DNA from: Terriglobia bacterium
GTDB taxonomy: Bacteria; Acidobacteriota; Terriglobia; 20CM-2-55-15
NCBI GenBank assembly: GCA_965198225.1
Contig: CBDAOY010000004.1
Location: 128,001-192,000 of the forward strand
Direction of reading: 5' to 3'
Length of the DNA stretch: 64,000 nt
Of this stretch, positions 13,869 to 25,880 are shown piece by piece. The position numbers were made by a program, and so were the translations under genes. The notes under the pieces are model-generated. The model worked only from the letters and a program-made list of their open reading frames with translations, searched no databases and was not told the DNA's origin. Position 1 is the first letter of the stretch. Every line of letters starts with the position of its first letter.

Positions 13869-15584
13869 CAGACTGTGTGAAAAGTCCAAGTCGTGGATCG
13901 CTGATCCGGCAACACCGAAGGGCAAGCACGATGACGGACCCGTGGCGACGCAGATCACTCGGGGCTGCCAGCCTTTTCGGTGGCGTGAGGTGTTGCTGTG
14001 ACTGGGAAACGCGGGATGGAGGCGGATTGTTGCGCCAAAAACGGGCGGATTACCCGGTCAAACCGCTGCGACGGCAATCAAGGCGGGAATTCCTACGAGG
14101 TTGATTGCGCGGCGCATGTTGTAGGCCAAGGCGGTGAGGCTGAACTCCCCGCGGACATTGCCGAGTCGGCGCGTCAGGAACGCGCCTTGGCCCATCCACT
14201 GCTTGATCGAACCGAAGGGATGCTCGACCGACTCCCGGCGACGATCCATCACCTCGGGCCGGGCGGCGAGACGGTTCGCCATGCGCTCCATCGTTGCTTC
14301 GTTCTCGAAGCGCGTGATGCGCCGATAGGTGTTCTTGGTACATCGTTCGCGTAGACCGCAGCCTCTGCATGCGGCGCGGTTGGCGTAACTGACAAGATAC
14401 GTGCCTGTGCGCGACTTACCGACGCTTCCGCGATACAACGGCACCAGGCGCTCACCAGCGGGGCACCGGTAGGTGTCCGTGGAGTCGTCGTATTGGAAAT
14501 CGGACTTCGGAAAGTGGCCACTGCGTCTGGCCGTGCTCCGGTCGGGCTTCGGAACGTAGGGCGTGATCCCGGCGGCTTCGCAGTCCTCAATGTCTTCGAT
14601 CTTGTAGTAGCCTCGGTCCGCGACCGCGTCGATCTCGTCGACAGCCAAGTTCTCCCGAGCCGCTGTGGCCGTCTCCGCGAGCAGACCGAGGTCCGAGACC
14701 TTGCTATGGACCTGCTGTTCGGCGATCAGGTTGTGCTCAGTGTCGACAGCGATCTGGACGTTGTAGCCGACTCCGACCCGTGTCCCGGAATGCATTGACC
14801 GGGAGTCCGGATCCGTAAGCGACAGCTGGGCTTCTCCGGTATCGTCCAGCGTCTGCCGATGCCCCTCCAAGGTCTCCTTTCTCTTACGGATCGATGCGAT
14901 CTTCTCCTGAAGATCCGCCACGGCAGCCGCTCTGCCGCCGGCATCATCCGCGTCGGCCTCGTTCACCTGGTCGAGGTAGCGGTCGAGTCGGTCGTCGATA
15001 CGCTGCAGGTCCGTCTTCAGCTTGGCCCGCGTGAAGTTGCGGTCCCGGTGGTTCACCGCCTTGATGCGCGTGCCGTCCACGGCGATCAACTCCCGCCCGT
15101 ACAGGTCGAGTTCCCGGCACAACCGCACGAACCGCCGAAACACCGCCCGGAACGCATGCCGATTGTCGCGCCGGAAGTCGGCGATCGTCTTGAAGTCGGG
15201 CTTCAGCTGGCGTAGCAGCCAGATCGCCTCGAGGTTGCGATGCGTCTCTGTCTCCAGCCTGCGGCTCGACCGAATACGATTCAGATACCCGTAGATATAC
15301 AGCTTCAGCAGATCCGCGGGATCGTAGCCTGGACGGCCCTTGTCGTTGGGCCGAACGCGCTGGAATCCAGCCGCCTCAAGGTCGAGACCGTCGACGAATG
15401 CATCAATGAAACGGACCGGGTTGTCCGGTCCCACGTAGTCGTCCACAGTATCGGGCAGAAGCAGAAGCTGGGAACGGTCTTCACCGGTGATATGTGCCAT
15501 GACACATTTTACCAACCGCCATGGGGAACCTGATGCCAGTTCACCGACTCCCGCCCGGCTGTCGCCGACTTTTCACACAGTCTG
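13869..15584 (-). mobile_element. IS1182-family insertion sequence, complete
   Basis: 18-bp IRs CAGACTGTGTGAAAAGTC / GACTTTTCACACAGTCTG enclose an intact transposase. Confidence 0.93.
14058..15500 (-). CDS. IS1182-family DDE transposase
   Basis: GRPGYDP..SSRRLE, PDFKTIADFR, AVDGTRIKA, TDPDSR, ADRGY, VEHPFG motifs. Confidence 0.93.
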   Translation of the reverse strand: MAHITGEDRSQLLLLPDTVDDYVGPDNPVRFIDAFVDGLDLEAAGFQRVRPNDKGRPGYDPADLLKLYIYGYLNRIRSSRRLETETHRNLEAIWLLRQLKPDFKTIADFRRDNRHAFRAVFRRFVRLCRELDLYGRELIAVDGTRIKAVNHRDRNFTRAKLKTDLQRIDDRLDRYLDQVNEADADDAGGRAAAVADLQEKIASIRKRKETLEGHRQTLDDTGEAQLSLTDPDSRSMHSGTRVGVGYNVQIAVDTEHNLIAEQQVHSKVSDLGLLAETATAARENLAVDEIDAVADRGYYKIEDIEDCEAAGITPYVPKPDRSTARRSGHFPKSDFQYDDSTDTYRCPAGERLVPLYRGSVGKSRTGTYLVSYANRAACRGCGLRERCTKNTYRRITRFENEATMERMANRLAARPEVMDRRRESVEHPFGSIKQWMGQGAFLTRRLGNVRGEFSLTALAYNMRRAINLVGIPALIAVAAV

Positions 15585-17543: not shown

Positions 17544-17779
17544 GGAACGGGTCCTTATGTTGTATTTCAACGTGCGCCGTGAGAAGGCGCCAATCCTCAG
17601 CGGGTGCGAATCCCGCCCGGCAACTGTCGCTCCAGTCGGTAGCAATCGGAGCGGATGGTGGAGGTAACAACATCGTCTGAAGCACTCCGATGACAAAGGG
17701 CCGCCTCGGGCGGCTCAGCGACCACACAGGCCACAACGCGAGTAAACGCCGAGCAGGCCTCGTATGTGGACGCCCCCCT

Positions 17780-18131
17780 GGTTGGCAAGCCTGACTTCGA
17801 ACCGAGGATCGGTGGCATTCAGGTCAGGTACGGTCGTATGTGCGGCCTCTTGATGCGGCACTTGCTGGCCGCGGGCCCGTATGGTGTTCGTGAGATCGGA
17901 TCCAAATCGAAACGACGGGCTCGATGGCCCTTCGAGGCCTACTGGGTTTTCCGATCCCGTCTTGTCGACCGTTTGCCCCTACCTTGTCCGACGTCCTGCT
18001 TGCACTCTCCAGTTGGAACCTCCGTGGCCCGTGTCCATCCGCCCAGGCGGCCAGCCGAACGATTTCCTCTCTCTTCTCCGCGTTTCTGATCTCGCCGACC
18101 CTTCTTCGCTCCACTGATCTGACTCGCAACC
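17780..18131 (-). ncRNA. Putative bridge/seekRNA region of the IS1111 element
   Basis: Non-coding end contains AGGCCTCG and CGTTTCGAT around a GGGC/GCCC hairpin, matching both target flanks. RNA boundaries unknown. Confidence 0.6.
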
Positions 18132-19178
18132 CTACGCTGCAGCCGCAACGGCCTTTGTCATTCCCCGTGCCCTGTAGCTCTCCTCCTTCACCGTCATGGC
18201 CCAGATGATGCGTGCCATCCTGTTGGCCAGAGCCACCGCAACCACCTTCCTCGGCTTTTCGTCCAGCATCCGGCCAAGCCAGGGATCGGTGACCTTCCTC
18301 CGCCGGATGGCACTCGAGATGACCGCCGTCGCCCCCAGGTACAGGAGCCTCCGGATGTCGCGCTGTCCCATCTTTGTGATCCCTCCCAGCCGTTGGCGGC
18401 CACCCGTCGAGGATTCACGCGGCGTGATCCCGACCCATGCCGCAAAGTCACGTCCATTACGGAAGCTCTCCATCGGTGGCGCGAACGCGTGCACCGCCAT
18501 TGCCGTGAGCTCTCCCACCCCTGGAATCGTCATCAGGCGCCCGAGCGCCTCATCTTCCCTCACGATGCGACGGATCTCCCGGTCCAGCTCATCGATCTCC
18601 GCATCCAGATCGTGGGTCCGCTCGATGAGGCGGCGTATGGCGGGAGGCACCAGCGCCGGGAAACACTCTTCACGCTCCGCGAACACCTCCTCCAGCCTCC
18701 CGACGTTGTGGGTCCCAAGCGGAGCGACGAGTCCAAACTCCGCGAGATGACCCCGCAGCGCGTTGATCGTCTGTGTCCGCTGGCGCACCAGCAGTGCCCG
18801 GGCCCGGAACACCACCGATCGTGCCTGCTCCTCCTCGGTCTTCACGGCCACGAACCGCATCGTCGGCCGCTGGGCCGCCTCGACGATCGCTCCCGCGTCG
18901 TTGGCGTCATTCTTCTGCCTCTTGACGTACGGCTTCACATACATCGGGGGAATCAGGCGGACCTCGTGACCGATCTCCTGGATCATCCGCCCCCAATGAT
19001 GGGCGCTGCCGCACACTTCCATCACGACCCGGCAGACAGGCTGCTTGGCGAGGAACTCGAGTAGCTTCGGGCGCGTGAGCTGCCTGCGCAGCACAGGCTC
19101 ACCGCTTGCCGTGGCTCCATGCAGTTGGAAGTACCTCTTTGAAATGTCGATGCCGATGATGGTGATCACCTTGCCCAT
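18132..19178 (-). CDS. IS110-family DEDD transposase/recombinase
   Basis: GIDISK, VMEVCG, KNDANDA, IPGVG, SSTGG motifs. Confidence 0.93.
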   Translation of the reverse strand: MGKVITIIGIDISKRYFQLHGATASGEPVLRRQLTRPKLLEFLAKQPVCRVVMEVCGSAHHWGRMIQEIGHEVRLIPPMYVKPYVKRQKNDANDAGAIVEAAQRPTMRFVAVKTEEEQARSVVFRARALLVRQRTQTINALRGHLAEFGLVAPLGTHNVGRLEEVFAEREECFPALVPPAIRRLIERTHDLDAEIDELDREIRRIVREDEALGRLMTIPGVGELTAMAVHAFAPPMESFRNGRDFAAWVGITPRESSTGGRQRLGGITKMGQRDIRRLLYLGATAVISSAIRRRKVTDPWLGRMLDEKPRKVVAVALANRMARIIWAMTVKEESYRARGMTKAVAAAA

Positions 19179-19577
19179 GTATCCCTCCCTCTATCGTGTT
19201 CTGAACGCACCCCTTGTGCGTTCTGCTGACCCGGCCCATTCTGCCGCCGGGGAGCGGGGGCGTCCACTCCATCGAAACGCACAATGCGGAAGCCGACCCG
19301 CCGTTGAAACGGGGAAGGCTGCCAGCGGTCGGGAAGCGAGCGACGCGAGCACCGACTGGTTCCGCCGGGGTATTGGGCGGTGGCATGTATGGAAGAGGGG
19401 ATTGGACGCAACACGGGAAGCCCTGCCGGTGGCGTGGCACGCGCCAACCGACAGCCCGCGAGGGTCAGGTTGGGCCGACAGGGTGGCGGAGAGGTCCGCA
19501 GTACCAAGAAAGCCGGGTAATGCCGCGTGGAGGGAAGGGACCTCAGTTCGAGAGCAGCGCATGACGGAGGAAGGGCC

Positions 19578-20399
19578 ATGAGGACTGGCGAGAGCCTAAC
19601 AGCCTCGGAGAGAGTTCAGCGACTCCAGACGGCGCTACATGTAGAAAGCGAAGGAAGCCCTGGGCTTCCGGTTCTACTCTCTGAGCGACAAGGTGTGGCG
19701 CGACGACGTGCTCGCAGTCGCCTGGCAGGCCGTGCGACGCAACGGCGGCGCGACACGGGGTGGACGGCGAGACGGTCGCGGACATCGATGCGTTCGAGGT
19801 GGACCGGTGGCTGGGAGCACTGGCGCGGGACCTGAAGGAAGGGACCTATCGGCCGCATGCGGTTCGGCAGGTTCTCATCCCGAAGAAGCAACGAGGGAAG
19901 TTCCGGCCGTTGGGCATTCCGTGTCTCCGGGATCGGGTGGTGCAGACGGCGGCGATGCTGGTGTTATCGCCGATCTTCGAAGCCGACCTGCAACCGGAGC
20001 AGTATGCGTACCGGCCGGGCCGAGACGCGCATGACGCAGTCAGGCGCGTGCATCGGCTGCTGACGACGGGCCACCGGGAGGTGGTGGACGCCGACCTGTC
20101 GGACTACTTCGGCCAGATTCCGCACGCGGACCTGATGAAGTCCATCGCCCGGCGTGTGAGCGACGGGCGGCTGTTGGGCTGGGTCAAGGCGTGGCTGGAG
20201 ATGGCGGTGGAAGAGGACGACGGGCGCGGCGGTCGCCGCCGCACGAACCGGGCGCGTCACGAGCGGAAGGGGACCCCGCAAGGGTCTCCGATCTCGCCGC
20301 TGTTCAGCAACATCTACATGCGGCGCTTCATTCTGGGCTGGAAGGTGCTGGGCTACGCCCGGCACTTCAAGGCGGAAATCGTCAACTACGCGGATGACT
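19578..20399 (+). pseudogene. Intron A reverse transcriptase/maturase, frameshifted and cut at YADD
   Basis: VQRLQTALH, RPLGIP..DRVVQ, DADLSDYF, GTPQGSPISP, NYADD; frameshifts near 19643 and 19755. Confidence 0.9.
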
Positions 20400-22281
20400 G
20401 TGCGCCACGACGGTGCGTAGAGGAGGCGGTCATGTAGACGCCGAATCGACACAGCCTTGCTGCACGAGAGATGAGGGCGGGCCCCTCGGACTCGGGGTGC
20501 AGGCCCAGGGTCCAAACCGCCGGATGCTGCTCGGACCAAACGGCCGGGGTGGTGAGCGAGACGGAAAAGGCGGGACAAACCCGTCAGGTGAGCGATGGGA
20601 AGACGAACGTGAGTGAACCGCTGATGACGTGTCGAAAGCGTAGGGACGCCATCGAAACCAAGCTCCAGTCGTTGGCCTGGGATGAAGCTCGGGAGGAGCC
20701 TGTTGACTGCCCGAGCGGTGGCCGGCATGAAGGCGGCGTGAGCCCATTGCAGGCTCTTGTGCGGAACGTGGGAACCTATCGCCTCGATGTTAAGGGAGAA
20801 ATCCAAGTGGAGGACCCACAAGGATGAGAATACCGATGCGAGGCGAAGGGGCGGATGGGCTTGTAGGAGCGAAGAAGCCTGGTAATGCGGGTGGAGCAAA
20901 GGGGCCCAACTCTCTGGCCAAGGACGCCGGTCAACCAGCGATGGGAGGAGCCGGTGTCTGAGGCAAAGCCTTATGTGATTCCAAAGCAACTTGTCTGGGA
21001 ATCGTACCAGCGGGTGAAGGCGAACCGCGGTGCAGCGGGCGTGGACGGTGAGTCGCTGGCGGCGTTGGAGAAGGACCTGAAGGGGAATCTCTACAAGGTC
21101 TGGAACCGGATGTCGTCGGGCTCGTACTTCCCGCCGCCCGTGCGGCTCGTTGAGATACCGAAGGATAACGGCGGCAAGCGCCCACTCGGTATTCCCACTG
21201 TTGCCGACAGAGTGGCGCAAACGGTCGTGAAGATGGTGTTCGAGCCCTTGGTGGAGCCGGTATTCCACGAGGACTCGTACGGCTATCGCCCCGGCCGGTC
21301 TGCGCTCGATGCGGTGGGAGTGGCGAGGAAGCGCTGCTGGGGCGCGGATTGGGTCATCGACCTGGACATCAAAGCCTTCTTTGATTCCATCCCGCATGAC
21401 CTCATTGAGCGCGCCGTGGCCCACCACACTGACCTTCCGTGGGTCCGTCTGTACGTTGCGCGGTGGCTTCGTGTCGCTGTGCAGCGGCCAGACGGGATCC
21501 TGGAGGAGCGGACGACGGGCACGCCGCAAGGCGGAGTCGTCAGTCCGCTGCTGGCCAACCTGTTGCTGCACTACGCGTTCGACCTCTGGATGCAAAGGAC
21601 CTTTCCGAGCGTCCAGTTCGAGCGGTATGCGGACGATGCCATCGTCCATTGCAGGAGCGAACGGCAGGCGCGAGCAGTATTGGAGGCCATTCGGGGTCGG
21701 TTCGAGCAGTGCGGTTTGGAGCTTCATCCTGTGAAGACCCGTATCGTTTACTGCAAGGACGACGACCGGCCTGGGGACTACGAACACGTCAAGTTCGACT
21801 TCCTCGGGTACACCTTCCAACCTCGGCGGGCGAAGAATCGCTGTTGGAAATTCTTCGTGAGCTTCCTACCGGCGATCAGCGCCAAGGCCGCCAAGAAGAT
21901 CCGGGCCACCATCCGCGAATGGCGGATGGCGTCCACCAGGAACAACCAGCGTCTGGAGGACTTGGCACGGCTCATCAACCCGTCGGTACGTGGCTGGATG
22001 AACTACTACGGACGGTTCTACCGGTCGAAGTGTGTTCAGGTCCTTCGCCATCTCAACGAGGCCCTCGCGGCATGGGCGCGATGGAAATACAAGCGGTTTC
22101 GGCGACGTGAGCGTGCGTCGATGCACTGGCTGGGGCGCATCGCGCGACGGGACAGGCAGCTGTTTGTCCTGTGGCAACTCGGCATCGTACCCGAGGCTGG
22201 AGAGTAGGAGCCGGATGAGGCGAGAGTTTCACGTCCGGTTCTGGGAGGGCCCGGGGGGGAAGTTCCCCCGGGCTACTCGAC
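20400..22281 (+). mobile_element. Group II intron B, complete, class D (RmInt1-like)
   Basis: GTGCGCC start; domain V GAGCCGGATGAGGCGAGAGTTTCACGTCCGGTTC; domain VI ending ACTCGAC. Confidence 0.9.
20955..22207 (+). CDS. ltrA: Group II intron reverse transcriptase/maturase without endonuclease domain
   Basis: VKANRGAAGVDG, LYKVWNRMSSGSYFPPPV, GTPQGGVVSP, RYADD, FDFLG, GWMNYYG. Confidence 0.92.
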
Positions 22282-22749
22282 GTGTGCCACGAGCACTGAC
22301 GGGCGCAAGTCGGGTCAGTGCGCAACTGTTTCACTGATGAGGGAGGGCCCCTCGGAGCCGGCGTGCAGGAGCCGGCTTCAAACCACCTTCGGTGGCTGTG
22401 GTTAAAAGCCATGGTCGTGAGCGCAGAAGGAAAAGGCCCGGGAAGAACCGGGTCAGGTGGCTGGCAAGAAGAGGACCGCAAGGGAATCACTGATGACGTG
22501 TCGAAAGCGTAGGGACGATGTCAGAACCGTGGGGAGTCATTACCGCGGGATCAGTTCAGACGAGAATCTGCTTACGGGCTGAGCGGCATCCGGCATAAAG
22601 GTGGCCTGAGCTTGTCGAGAGGCGGTGAAACGGAACGTGGGAACCTGAGATTCCGATGCTAACGGAGACGCCACAAGTGGAAGAACCACGAGGGCCAGAG
22701 TACGAACCATCCTGGCTCGCGGAGTCTCAGGGGCGGAATGGCCCGTAGT
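22282..22749 (+). mobile_element. Group II intron C, 5' fragment (class D-like)
   Basis: GTGTGCC start. Domain I is colinear with intron B (GATGAGGGAGGGCCCCTCGG, TGATGACGTGTCGAAAGCGTAGGGACG, GGAACGTGGGAACC). Stops in domain III. Confidence 0.8.
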
Positions 22750-23331
22750 GCGTGCCTGGCAGCACGCGTTTCCGGCGGGTTAAAGTCCCGCTCGGCCCGA
22801 GGCCACGGGTCGATATCCAACAAGTGGGGGTAATGCCTCACTGGCCGGAGTGTAGGCAGGTATGGCAAATGCCTAAACGGGCACGAAGGCGAAAGCCGGA
22901 CACGGACAAGGCAAAGCTGGAGCCACCTACGGAAACTTTGGAGGGCAGGGCGCCCACCGCGAGGTGGGGTCTGAAGGGCATGAGGAGAACCACCGGGTCG
23001 TAATCGACGGGAGCCATCCCGAGGATGAACCGGTCGGCCAAAGATGGGGAATGGTCGAGCCCGCACTATTGGGGCGAAGGCGCATTGGTTCCACCCCATC
23101 GCACCAAGGTGTGTGCGGGCGACACGGTGGGGAAGAGACGCGAGTGACCCAGGGAGGCCTGGTATCGTCCGAGCGGAAGGTAAGGTCGAGATGATGTGGC
23201 ACCCAAGGCAGACGAAAGGGCGGGCAACCGAGAAGACAAACATCGACCTAGAGCCCTGCGCGGTAGGTGCGGATATAAGCGAGAGCGAAATTCCGGCCGA
23301 CGCGGTGTCAGGAATCGGATCGGGGAATAGT
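22750..23331 (+). mobile_element. Group II intron D1, 5' fragment (582 bp)
   Basis: Nearly identical to 23332-23910 with scattered substitutions and a 3-bp indel. Confidence 0.8.
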
Positions 23332-24235
23332 GCGTGCCTGGCAGCACGCGTTTCCGGCGGGTTAAAGTCCCGCTCGGCCCGAGGCCACGGGTCGATATCC
23401 AACAAGTGGGGGTAATGCCTCACTGGCCGAAGTGTAGACAGGTAGTGCAGATGCCTAAACGGGCACGAAGGCGAAAGCCGGATACGGCCAAGGCAAAGCT
23501 GGAGCCAGCTACGGAAACTTTGGAGGGCAGGGCGCCCACCGCGAGGTGGGGTCTGAAGGGCATGAGGAGAACCACCGGGTCGTAATCGACGGGAGCCATC
23601 CCGAGGATGAACCGGTCGGCCAAAGATGGGGAATGGTCGAGCCCGCACTATTGGGGCGAAGGCGCATTGGTTCCACCCCATCGCACCAAGGTGTGTGCGG
23701 GCGACACGGTGGAGAAGAGACGCGAGTGACCCAGGGAGGCCTGGTATCGTCCGAGCGGAAGGTAAGGTCGAGATGATGTGGCACCCGCAGACGAAAGGGC
23801 GGGCAACCGAGAAGACAAACATCGACCTAGAGCCCTGCGCGGTAGGTGCGGATATAAGCGAGAGCGAAATTCCGGCCGACGCGGTGTCAGGAATCGGATC
23901 GGGGAATAGTACTCAGGAACGAGACGGCAAACATAAGGTCTCGGATCGTTGCTTCGAGCAGCGGCGCTGGCGGGTCCAAAAGGCCCGTTGGAGGGGGAAG
24001 TCCCCGTACTCAGTCGTGAATGTGCGAGCGATGGGAAACGCGGAGATATCGTGGAATTGGATAGTTCCCTTAGCGAAAGACCCAAACGCGGTACGAACGA
24101 AGCCGCCACCTGCCGCCACACAGCGAATTCCGAACGAGGAGCAACTGAGGAAAGCGGCTTGCGGGAAAACCGCACGAGCCGTTTGATTGAGCGGACGGTG
24201 GAAGGGCCGATCGGCCCGACCACTTTCGACTCTAC
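23332..24235 (+). mobile_element. Group II intron D2, complete and ORF-less (~904 nt)
   Basis: GCGTGCC start; EBS1-like ACTATT; domain V AAAGCGGCTTGCGGGAAAACCGCACGAGCCGTTTG; ends GACTCTAC; no RT ORF. Confidence 0.8.
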
Positions 24236-25771
24236 ACTCCGAGGTCGGGAGAGCCGATCACATGGGGAAGCGGCCAGCAGAAGTGGACTCGTTCTTGGGA
24301 AACATGAGCTCCATGCAACGGGAGGATACGGTCCTCTATGCAACGAGAGGAACAACCAGTCATGGAAACGAAACTGGAACGAATAGCGGCGAAAGCTCGG
24401 AGTGAGCCAAAGCTCCGGTTCACGTCACTGGCGCATCATGTCACCCGAGAGCGTGTGTGGAAGAACCTGTGTCAAGTGCCCCGCAACACGGCTCCCGGAT
24501 GTGATGGTCAGAGGGTACCGGAGGCGAAGGAGGAATTCGGAGTCTGGGTGGAGCCAATGCTCCAGTCTGTTCACCAGAAGGGATATCGCGCTCCGCCGAT
24601 TCGGCGGGTGTATATCCCCAAGCCCGGCAAGCAGGAGAAACGTCCCCTGGGCGTGCCCTGTGTTCAAGATCGGGCCCTTCAGCGCAGCGTGGCCGAGGTA
24701 TTGGTCGCCATCTACGAGCAGGACTTCTTGCCCTGTTCCTTTGGTGGCCGGCCTGGGCTGGGCGCCCACAATGCACTGGCAACCCTCCATGAGGTGATTT
24801 CCGGATGCAAGGTGAGTTGGGTGTTGGAGGCGGACTTGAAGAACTTTTTCGGGAGTTTAGACCATGGATGGCTACTCCGCTTTGTGGAGCATCGAGTCGG
24901 AGATCCGCGGATCATCAGTCTGATACGACGATGGTTAAAGGCGGGCGTTTTCGAAGACGGGGAATTGCATTCGAACGAAGAGGGAACCCCGCAAGGTGGG
25001 TCGATCAGCGTTCTGCTGAGCAATCTGTACCTGCATTATGTGCTTGACCTGTGGTTTGACCGGATGGTCCGGCCACGCCTGAAGGGTGAAGCGTATCTGG
25101 TGCGGTACATCGACGACTTTGTCGTGTGTTTCCAATATCGGGACGATGCGCTTCGTTTCCAGAACGTTCTGCGCAAGCGACTGGGAAAGTTTGGACTGGT
25201 TCCGGAGCCGACCAAGACGAAGCTCGTCGAATTCGGCCGCTATGCCCAGCGCGATGTCGTCCGGCGCGGGAGAAAACGTCCAGAGACGATCTATTTTCTG
25301 GGCATGACCCTGTACTGTACGCGTAATCGCAAAGGCAATTTTAGAGTGGGACTGCGAACAGAGAAGTCTCGACTTCGACGCAGTCTGGCTCATCTACGCG
25401 GCGTGATGAGGCGAATGCGTCACTTGCCGGTCCGGGAGCAAGTGCACAATCTGAACCGAGTCTTGCGCGGGCACTACGCCTACTATGGCATTGCCGGGAA
25501 CCTCCGGGCTCTGCAGCACGTCGCTCGGGCCGTGGAACGTTACTGGCGCCAAATGCTCAGCAGTCGTAGTCGTGCAGGCTTCGTCCGGTGGGAAGTATTC
25601 AACCGGATTCAGCTGCACTTTCCGTTACAGCGTCCCAAGTTGGCTCTCCGCTATCGGGAGTTCCAGTCTCTCGCTGTGCTGTAAATCCAATTCTGAAGAG
25701 CGCAGTGCGGGAAATCCGCACGCTGCGTTCTGTGGGAGCCGGAGGCGGGCAACTGCCTCCGGCCACCCGGT
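24236..25771 (+). mobile_element. Group II intron E, 3' part (domain III to end), tentatively class E-like
   Basis: Domain III half ACTCCGAGGTCGGGAGAGCCGATCACATGGGGAAG, RT ORF, domain V GAGCGCAGTGCGGGAAATCCGCACGCTGCGTTC, end CACCCGGT. Confidence 0.8.
24362..25684 (+). CDS. ltrA: Group II intron reverse transcriptase/maturase
   Basis: RFTSLAHH, RPLGVP..DRALQ, EADLKNFF, GTPQGGSIS, RYIDD, RGHYAYYG. Confidence 0.92.
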   Translation: METKLERIAAKARSEPKLRFTSLAHHVTRERVWKNLCQVPRNTAPGCDGQRVPEAKEEFGVWVEPMLQSVHQKGYRAPPIRRVYIPKPGKQEKRPLGVPCVQDRALQRSVAEVLVAIYEQDFLPCSFGGRPGLGAHNALATLHEVISGCKVSWVLEADLKNFFGSLDHGWLLRFVEHRVGDPRIISLIRRWLKAGVFEDGELHSNEEGTPQGGSISVLLSNLYLHYVLDLWFDRMVRPRLKGEAYLVRYIDDFVVCFQYRDDALRFQNVLRKRLGKFGLVPEPTKTKLVEFGRYAQRDVVRRGRKRPETIYFLGMTLYCTRNRKGNFRVGLRTEKSRLRRSLAHLRGVMRRMRHLPVREQVHNLNRVLRGHYAYYGIAGNLRALQHVARAVERYWRQMLSSRSRAGFVRWEVFNRIQLHFPLQRPKLALRYREFQSLAVL

Positions 25772-25880
25772 GCGACTGGAAACGAAGCCACGGCGAGGAG
25801 TGAGGCACCGGAATCGGCGAAAGCCACCGGCAACAGCTACCCCCTTTGCCTACCGCCACCGCGCCAGTCGTCGACTCTAC
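25772..25880 (+). mobile_element. Domain VI / 3' end of a further group II intron (possibly A)
   Basis: Long hairpin CGACTGG...CCAGTCG ending TCGACTCTAC. Confidence 0.65.

Follow-up and report, generated by a model that had tools for sequence, protein, structure and literature searches.

The closest described relatives of the element analysed here are the IS1111 insertion sequences (IS), whose transposases are described as 330–350 amino acids (aa) in length with a C-terminal GL-P----S(t)G motif (PMC11187229) and whose subterminal inverted repeats are given as 7–17 bp (PMC11208160). The seekRNAs of ISEc11, ISPa11 and ISKpn4 carry overlapping target matches in which the top-strand match lies 5′ of the bottom-strand match, and natural retargeting has been described for ISEc11 and ISXne4 (PMC11187229). 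Published RNAs fall into short forms of 82–96 nt and long forms of 148–172 nt (Table 1 of PMC13604230), Durrant et al. (2024, PMC11208160) predicted that 93% of IS1111s have a bridge RNA in their right end, and a junction promoter has been described for the family (PMC13604230). Here we report on an IS1111-type element at positions 17763–19272 of a 64 000-nucleotide stretch of a Terriglobia bacterium contig (CBDAOY010000004.1, positions 128 001–192 000; hereafter the window), which very probably relies on a non-coding RNA of its own to select where it inserts and which sits inside a group II intron.

The element, its insertion junction and its target guides

The element is a typical IS1111-type insertion sequence of the IS110 group, 1510 bp in length without its core dinucleotide, and lies with all its features on the minus strand of the window. 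Its transposase gene (18132–19178) encodes an IS110-family protein of the DEDD type, 348 aa in length and within the range published for IS1111, that matches the Pfam families PF01548 (DEDD_Tnp_IS110; residues 8–147, 2.9e-15) and PF02371 (residues 214–289, 1.2e-21) and scores 320 bits against the NCBIfam model NF033542 'IS110 family RNA-guided transposase' (cut-off 140). Sequence matches in the PDB were to ISCro4 (3.5e-14) and IS621 (6.4e-11), mainly in the C-terminal domain, and the C-terminal IS1111 motif is present, reading G-I-T-P-R-E-S-S-T-G in the stretch aligned to ISCro4. Non-coding DNA extends for 369 nt downstream of the gene compared with 94 nt upstream. Two subterminal inverted repeats match each other exactly over 12 bp, a length within the IS1111 range: the left arm, GTGGACGCCCCC (19256–19267), lies 5 nt inside the left tip and the right arm, GGGGGCGTCCAC (17766–17777), is separated from the right tip by 3 nt. 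The first letters of the element in transposase sense are thus ATGGA-GTGGACGCCCCC and its last ones GGGGGCGTCCAC-ATA.

Three empty copies of the target, in near-identical introns of the same genome (C5:610064, C6:7763 and C6:838999), read AGGCCT-CG-AAACG, which identifies the shared core as CG and delimits the element at 17763–19272. Empty sites hold one CG and filled sites two, the one beside the right end at 17761–17762 and the second at 19273–19274. Three further intron copies, at 88–89% identity, read AGGCCTCGTAACG (two copies) and AGGCCTCGGAACG (one copy), two natural variants of the target with changes beside the core. Contigs from all four public runs (four studies) join 17759 to 19272, skipping 1512 bases and with three ambiguous letters, and the same ends stand next to CG on both sides in 20 of the 22 records of relatives in which both ends were found. 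In transposase sense, the target of the window copy is CGTTT-CG-AGGCCT. The original prediction, made from the letters of the window, had placed an IS110/IS1111-type element at about 17755–19279, for which the open reading frame (ORF) and the Pfam matches provide support; its junction, AGGCCTCGT-AT-CGAAACG, has to be replaced, since the three empty copies show a core of CG and not AT, and its circle junction, CACTCC-AT-GTGGAC, is 5 bases short because the core is CG. A circle-junction polymerase chain reaction or a target plasmid built on that earlier junction would fail without the CG core.

A predicted target-binding stem-loop of 73 nt (17889–17961), seen both in the single-copy fold and in the consensus structure, comprises an outer stem, an internal loop with both target guides and an inner hairpin. 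The 5′ target guide, AGGCCUCGAA (17931–17940), reads AGGCCTCGAA in RNA sense (17940–17931), a 10-nt complement of TT-CG-AGGCCT in the target's top strand, and its block covaries with the right flanks in relatives. The 3′ target guide, CGUUUCGA (17907–17914), reads CGTTTCGA in RNA sense (17914–17907), an 8-nt identity to the top strand CGTTT-CG-A that would pair with the bottom strand, and its block covaries with the left flanks. The two matches overlap on the core, the top-strand match being 5′ of the bottom-strand match. The letters first read at 17940–17906 in transposase sense are correct and both positions named there match the target and covary, while their division into a guide for the 'left flank' and one for the 'core plus right flank' was wrong, as the guides overlap on CG. 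When the non-coding region was put through 3000 dinucleotide shuffles, a complement of at least 10 nt arose in 27, an identity of at least 8 nt in 224, and both matches with at least 8 nt in 39. The guide match of a single copy is suggestive only; it is lifted above chance because the guides covary with flanks in relatives.

Guide blocks covary with flanks on a conserved scaffold

A scan of species genomes yielded 68 related loci with 30–87% aa identity to the transposase, i.e. 69 records including the window. A strict pattern for both ends was matched by 22 of these; the other 47, with truncated genes, insertions or other end variants, were left out of the covariation count, and L009 was dropped from it as its left flank is missing. 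An alignment of these records over the 215 nt leading up to the right end shows a highly conserved scaffold with exactly two variable blocks, located at the two guide matches of the window. Guide blocks were scored against their own flanks over 6 nt and 5 nt beside the core (11 positions in total), giving a mean of 9.06 out of 11 for 18 unique guide/flank combinations versus 3.58 for 300 non-cognate pairs, and none of 20 000 permutations reached the observed sum of matches. When each distinct guide pair was counted only once (16 rows), matches were found at 146 of 176 positions, a value likewise reached by 0 of 20 000 permutations. Covariation of the two segments with their flanks across homologues had been put forward as a check of the original prediction, and it bears out the central claim of an IS1111-type element with two downstream target guides separated by a hairpin, the positions named being the two blocks that covary.

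Guide pairs differ even between close relatives. Transposases 85–87% identical to that of the window carry three guide pairs, the first in the window, L002 and L003, the second in L001 and the third in L007 (L001 and L007 both at 87% aa and with pairs other than the window's); the flanks fit the guides for the window, L002 and L007, whereas those of L001 were not recovered. These data bear on the alternative that the transposase protein alone chooses the site and that the non-coding matches are coincidental or a side effect of shared sequence, which we regard as very improbable. This explanation can draw on the 39 of 3000 shuffles in which both matches arise within a single element, and on the fact that the guide RNA is here predicted from DNA sequence. 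It does not accommodate blocks that are homologous in position and covary with flanks beyond every one of the 20 000 permutations, nor the three guide pairs, two of them with fitting flanks, among transposases so similar; moreover, for ISEc11 and its relatives the RNA is described as experimentally required and reprogrammable (PMC11187229).

The region carrying the guides, about 150 nt in length (17825–17975), is a predicted structured non-coding RNA resembling seekRNAs and bridge RNAs, with a scaffold conserved in 22 records. RNAalifold applied to 17 distinct sequences returned two stem-loops. In this structure 98.4% of cells are paired, compared with 26–47% when partners are slid by 1–3 columns, and changes on both sides occur at four pairs (as many in 8 of 500 shuffles). 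G-U is found in three pairs, in 13, 15 and 3 of the 17 sequences respectively; as G-U pairs would mismatch on the opposite strand, this points to an RNA read in transposase sense. An outer stem enclosing both loops (ACGGUCG/CGACCGU) was predicted for this copy and set aside, as RNAalifold did not keep it in relatives. No Rfam family was found over the non-coding RNA in the window, in 11 loci or in 20 further loci. In L003 and L010, 0.3–1.5 kb of extra DNA lies between the transposase gene and the otherwise intact scaffold (gene-to-scaffold offsets of 1665 and 417 nt versus about 140–190 elsewhere).

The second conserved stem-loop (17827–17888) is a candidate donor-binding loop, with a 5′ strand ACACCAU (17887–17881) and a 3′ strand CACAUACGA (17842–17834) that equals the right-end tail followed by CG and the first base of the left end. 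Within the main family, hardly any variation is seen in this stem-loop or in the ends of the element. A subfamily with about 50% aa identity has ACACC or ACACA as its right-end tail, with the corresponding letters in the 3′ strand of the loop, ACATA being a third variant, and the two core positions of the loop usually match the left-junction core (TG, AG or CG). A donor loop had earlier been sought at 18000–18040, a stretch with only 6-mer matches that lies upstream of the aligned conserved scaffold, which starts at about 17975; 17827–17888, which follows the end variants, is preferred. Loci L032–L046 (about 50% aa) display UG as the core in the 3′ target guide and donor loop and CG in the 5′ target guide, and several of them have TG at the left junction and CG at the right; donor and target cores seem to differ here by one base, each junction keeping a different one.

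The joined ends possibly also complete a promoter that exists only in the circle. The right end contains TTGCCA (17783–17788), which may serve as the −35 box of such a promoter, being spaced 18 nt from a TACGAT that arises only across the joined ends, and TTGC is conserved at this right-end position in 21 of 22 aligned records.

A group II intron as insertion site

The insertion lies in intron A, a group II intron on the plus strand whose domain I sequence 5′ of the insertion point occupies 17572–17762 and is collinear with an uninterrupted copy on C6. The intron continues at 19275–20399, and its last 109 nt resume at 25772–25880. Placing the flanks in domain I, as was done at the outset, agrees with a match to the Rfam family RF02003 (D1-D4-4; 17598–17741, 82.8 bits) and with the GTGCG at 17572 that marks the 5′ end of the intron, about 190 nt before the insertion site. 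A truncated reverse transcriptase (RT) ORF of intron A was found at 19760–20437 (Pfam RVT_1), and the uninterrupted copy L069 has RF00029 at its 3′ end and a GIIM domain. For this intron family, the 5′ part occurs nine times in the genome; of 34 species genomes from the order, 12 contain the family.

Identical copies at unrelated sequences had been named beforehand as the outcome that would speak against guided insertion; instead, all three IS copies in the genome are at the same intron site, namely the window copy, C5:746527–748087 (99.5%) and a third copy (98.4%) that ends after about 1150 nt of the element. The other two copies have 8 and 19 differences, none in the guides or the donor loop, and copy 3 differs once in the scaffold of the target stem-loop, at 17946. 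The 13-mer target has three further occurrences in the genome, all empty and all in intron copies, and shorter 11-mers have 5 and 8 occurrences outside the 13-mer sites, none of which is one of the three places occupied by the IS. Two copies in the Longimicrobiales metagenome-assembled genome OX639991 (L002 and L003; 85% aa) have the same guides as the window and both adjoin an RF02003 match, which in L002 lies 22 nt away from the right end, the same distance that is seen in the window. Among the 34 species genomes of the order this IS is present only in that of the window, the others reaching at most 41% aa. Rfam gave no intron match in any of 20 further related loci, so that, of the loci examined, only the window, L002 and L003 show intron targeting.

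Such a distribution might also stem from one old insertion that was carried along whenever recombination, gene conversion or intron mobility copied the intron, rather than from separate guided insertions, in which case it would say little on current targeting. We consider this unlikely. In its favour, the occupied sites all belong to a single intron family, the loci cease to be homologous at the 5′ end of the intron, and the window and L002 have diverged similarly in the 5′ part of the intron (153 identities in 200 aligned columns) and in the IS (1253 of 1537); a second IS of this genome, described below, is 100% identical in two intron copies, which suggests that intron-plus-IS composites may be copied. 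However, the intron copies C5:610 and C5:746 share that second IS at 100% identity and only one of them holds the present element, whose precise gain or loss at its site must therefore have been independent of that intron lineage. In addition, splicing and hence retrohoming should be stopped by 1.5 kb inserted into a domain I helix, and copied insertions leave unexplained why guide blocks track flanks over 16 distinct guide pairs in other hosts.

The block CAGGCCTCG at the target is invariant in 8 aligned intron copies that are about 75% identical overall; the base that follows is A in seven copies and T in one, and then comes an invariant A. The consensus fold of these copies shows GCCUCG as the 5′ strand of a long-range domain I helix with six pairs, all invariant, and AAAC after it as unpaired. 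Compensatory changes were found at 26 of 101 predicted pairs, including helices neighbouring the target block. A further intron copy, L076 (G032:C1:650286–650468; 90% identical), reads AGGCCGCG and breaks at exactly the same position; it was considered as an insertion of this IS and rejected, the adjoining sequence being unrelated to the element.

Several other mobile elements were observed around the insertion. Group II introns B (20473–22281; RT at 20885–22207) and C (22339–25771; RT at 24338–25684) are both located inside the RT ORF of intron A, a copy that is thus interrupted three times, and intron C contains an antisense ORF of 387 aa (22659–23822, minus strand) with no Pfam match. A DDE transposase (DUF772 and DDE_Tnp_1; 14058–15515, minus strand) lies 2 kb upstream of the intron, making this a neighbourhood dense in mobile elements. 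The second IS1111-type element of the genome is 1455 bp in length, with a transposase 37% identical in aa and its own 10-bp subterminal repeats. It occupies two intron A copies (C5:608366–609820 and C5:~744857–746311; the empty equivalent is 19515/19516 in the window) and two non-intron sites with similar flanks (C5:838638–840105 and C4:355360–356829).

Proposed mechanism and comparison with known systems

In the mechanism we favour, the 3′ non-coding region would be transcribed in transposase sense and fold into a scaffold of about 150 nt with two stem-loops. The first would bear, in an internal loop, the two target guides that overlap on the core, and the second would bear the same kind of segments for the joined ends of the element, i.e. 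ACATA, CG and A together with the left-end ATGG. The RNA-bound DEDD transposase would then bring the circular element to the target, where strands would be exchanged at CG. Analogy with ISEc11, ISPa11, ISKpn4 and IS621 suggests that such an RNA is produced, that it binds the transposase and that it guides recombination. The guide address would be the invariant block CAGGCCTCGAA in domain I of the group II intron family, so that the element would live inside intron copies and break the ribozyme where it lands.

A number of observations weigh against this mechanism. None of the listed public runs, all of which are contigs, is recorded as RNA. Folded as single sequences, the non-coding region (369 nt, z of −0.41) and its 156-nt part (z of −1.53) are no stabler than shuffles, and with folding energy unremarkable the case for structure rests on the alignment. 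The 5′ strand of the donor loop, ACACCAU, pairs here at 6 of 7 positions with the left-end ATGGAGT without clear core pairing; it hardly varies and matches only 4–6 nt of the left end. Three of the 18 guide/flank combinations are misfits (L019, 3/11; L020, 6/11, with two right ends; L005, 7/11, with a 1-nt indel). In the scaffold loop just 5′ of the 5′ guide, the window copy has a private G at 17946, where copy 3 of the genome, the contigs of all four runs and the family consensus have T. A scan of the linear element detected no sigma-70-like promoter, a search of the assembly for the circle junction returned no match, and no go-back (circle) joint was among the joints listed from the run contigs (15 of 20). 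Finally, three perfect target sites are unoccupied, and the activity of the element may be low or past.

The intron serves as a dedicated address, for which a safe multi-copy landing site fits the data equally well as antagonism. A bolder and tentative proposal, to which we give rather less than even weight, is that the IS lineage is a dedicated hyperparasite whose guide is fixed on a ribozyme block that the intron cannot change without losing function, introns being a recurrent IS habitat. If so, the intron would provide a stable, multi-copy and horizontally travelling address, each insertion would kill an intron copy, and the second, unrelated IS1111-type element on another site of the same intron would mark introns as a recurrent habitat of RNA-guided IS.

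The mechanism has been known since 2024 and no new class is involved; it is the natural target that is unusual. A full-text literature search, which did not cover the target-listing supplements of the 2024 papers, retrieved no published case in which a group II intron is the target of an IS110/IS1111 element. For an RNA-guided recombinase, a ribozyme motif that is under functional constraint in another mobile element would be a new kind of address. The family also offers a readable natural guide set of 16 distinct guide pairs on one conserved scaffold, from which the core, the guide lengths (about 6+2 and 5+2) and the candidate donor loop can be read directly, for use in annotating IS1111 elements and in picking scaffolds for retargeting.

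Compared with the IS1111 seekRNA elements ISEc11, ISPa11, ISKpn4 and ISPst6, as described by Siddiquee et al. (2024, PMC11187229), the element has in common a DEDD transposase in the 330–350 aa range, subterminal repeats, a long downstream non-coding region, two short overlapping target matches in the same order on either side of a hairpin, and close relatives retargeted via changes in the guide blocks. With about 73 nt in the target stem-loop and about 150 nt overall, its predicted RNA comes near the published short and long forms (PMC13604230). It differs from those elements in its natural target, a group II intron ribozyme block and not repetitive extragenic palindromic (REP) sequences, attC or transposon ends, and it is known here from its sequence.

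The likeness to the bridge RNA of IS621 and IS110 elements, as that RNA is described in PMC11208160, lies in a target loop accompanied by a candidate loop for the joined ends and in guides predicted to pair with both strands and to include the core; that paper, too, describes a donor guide that pairs discontinuously. Unlike in IS621, the RNA is downstream of the gene, the guide order is reversed and long subterminal repeats are present; with respect to IS621 and ISCro4, the transposase sequence match is mainly C-terminal and the 5′ strand of the donor loop has no clear core pairing. An address that is a conserved multi-copy sequence on another genetic element is shared with IS4321/IS5075 (inverted repeats of the Tn21 family), the IS1111-attC group and ISPa11/ISPpu9 (REP), which are cited in PMC11208160 and PMC1525189. 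What sets the present case apart from all of these is that a self-splicing retroelement acts as host, with the address located in its catalytic RNA domain.

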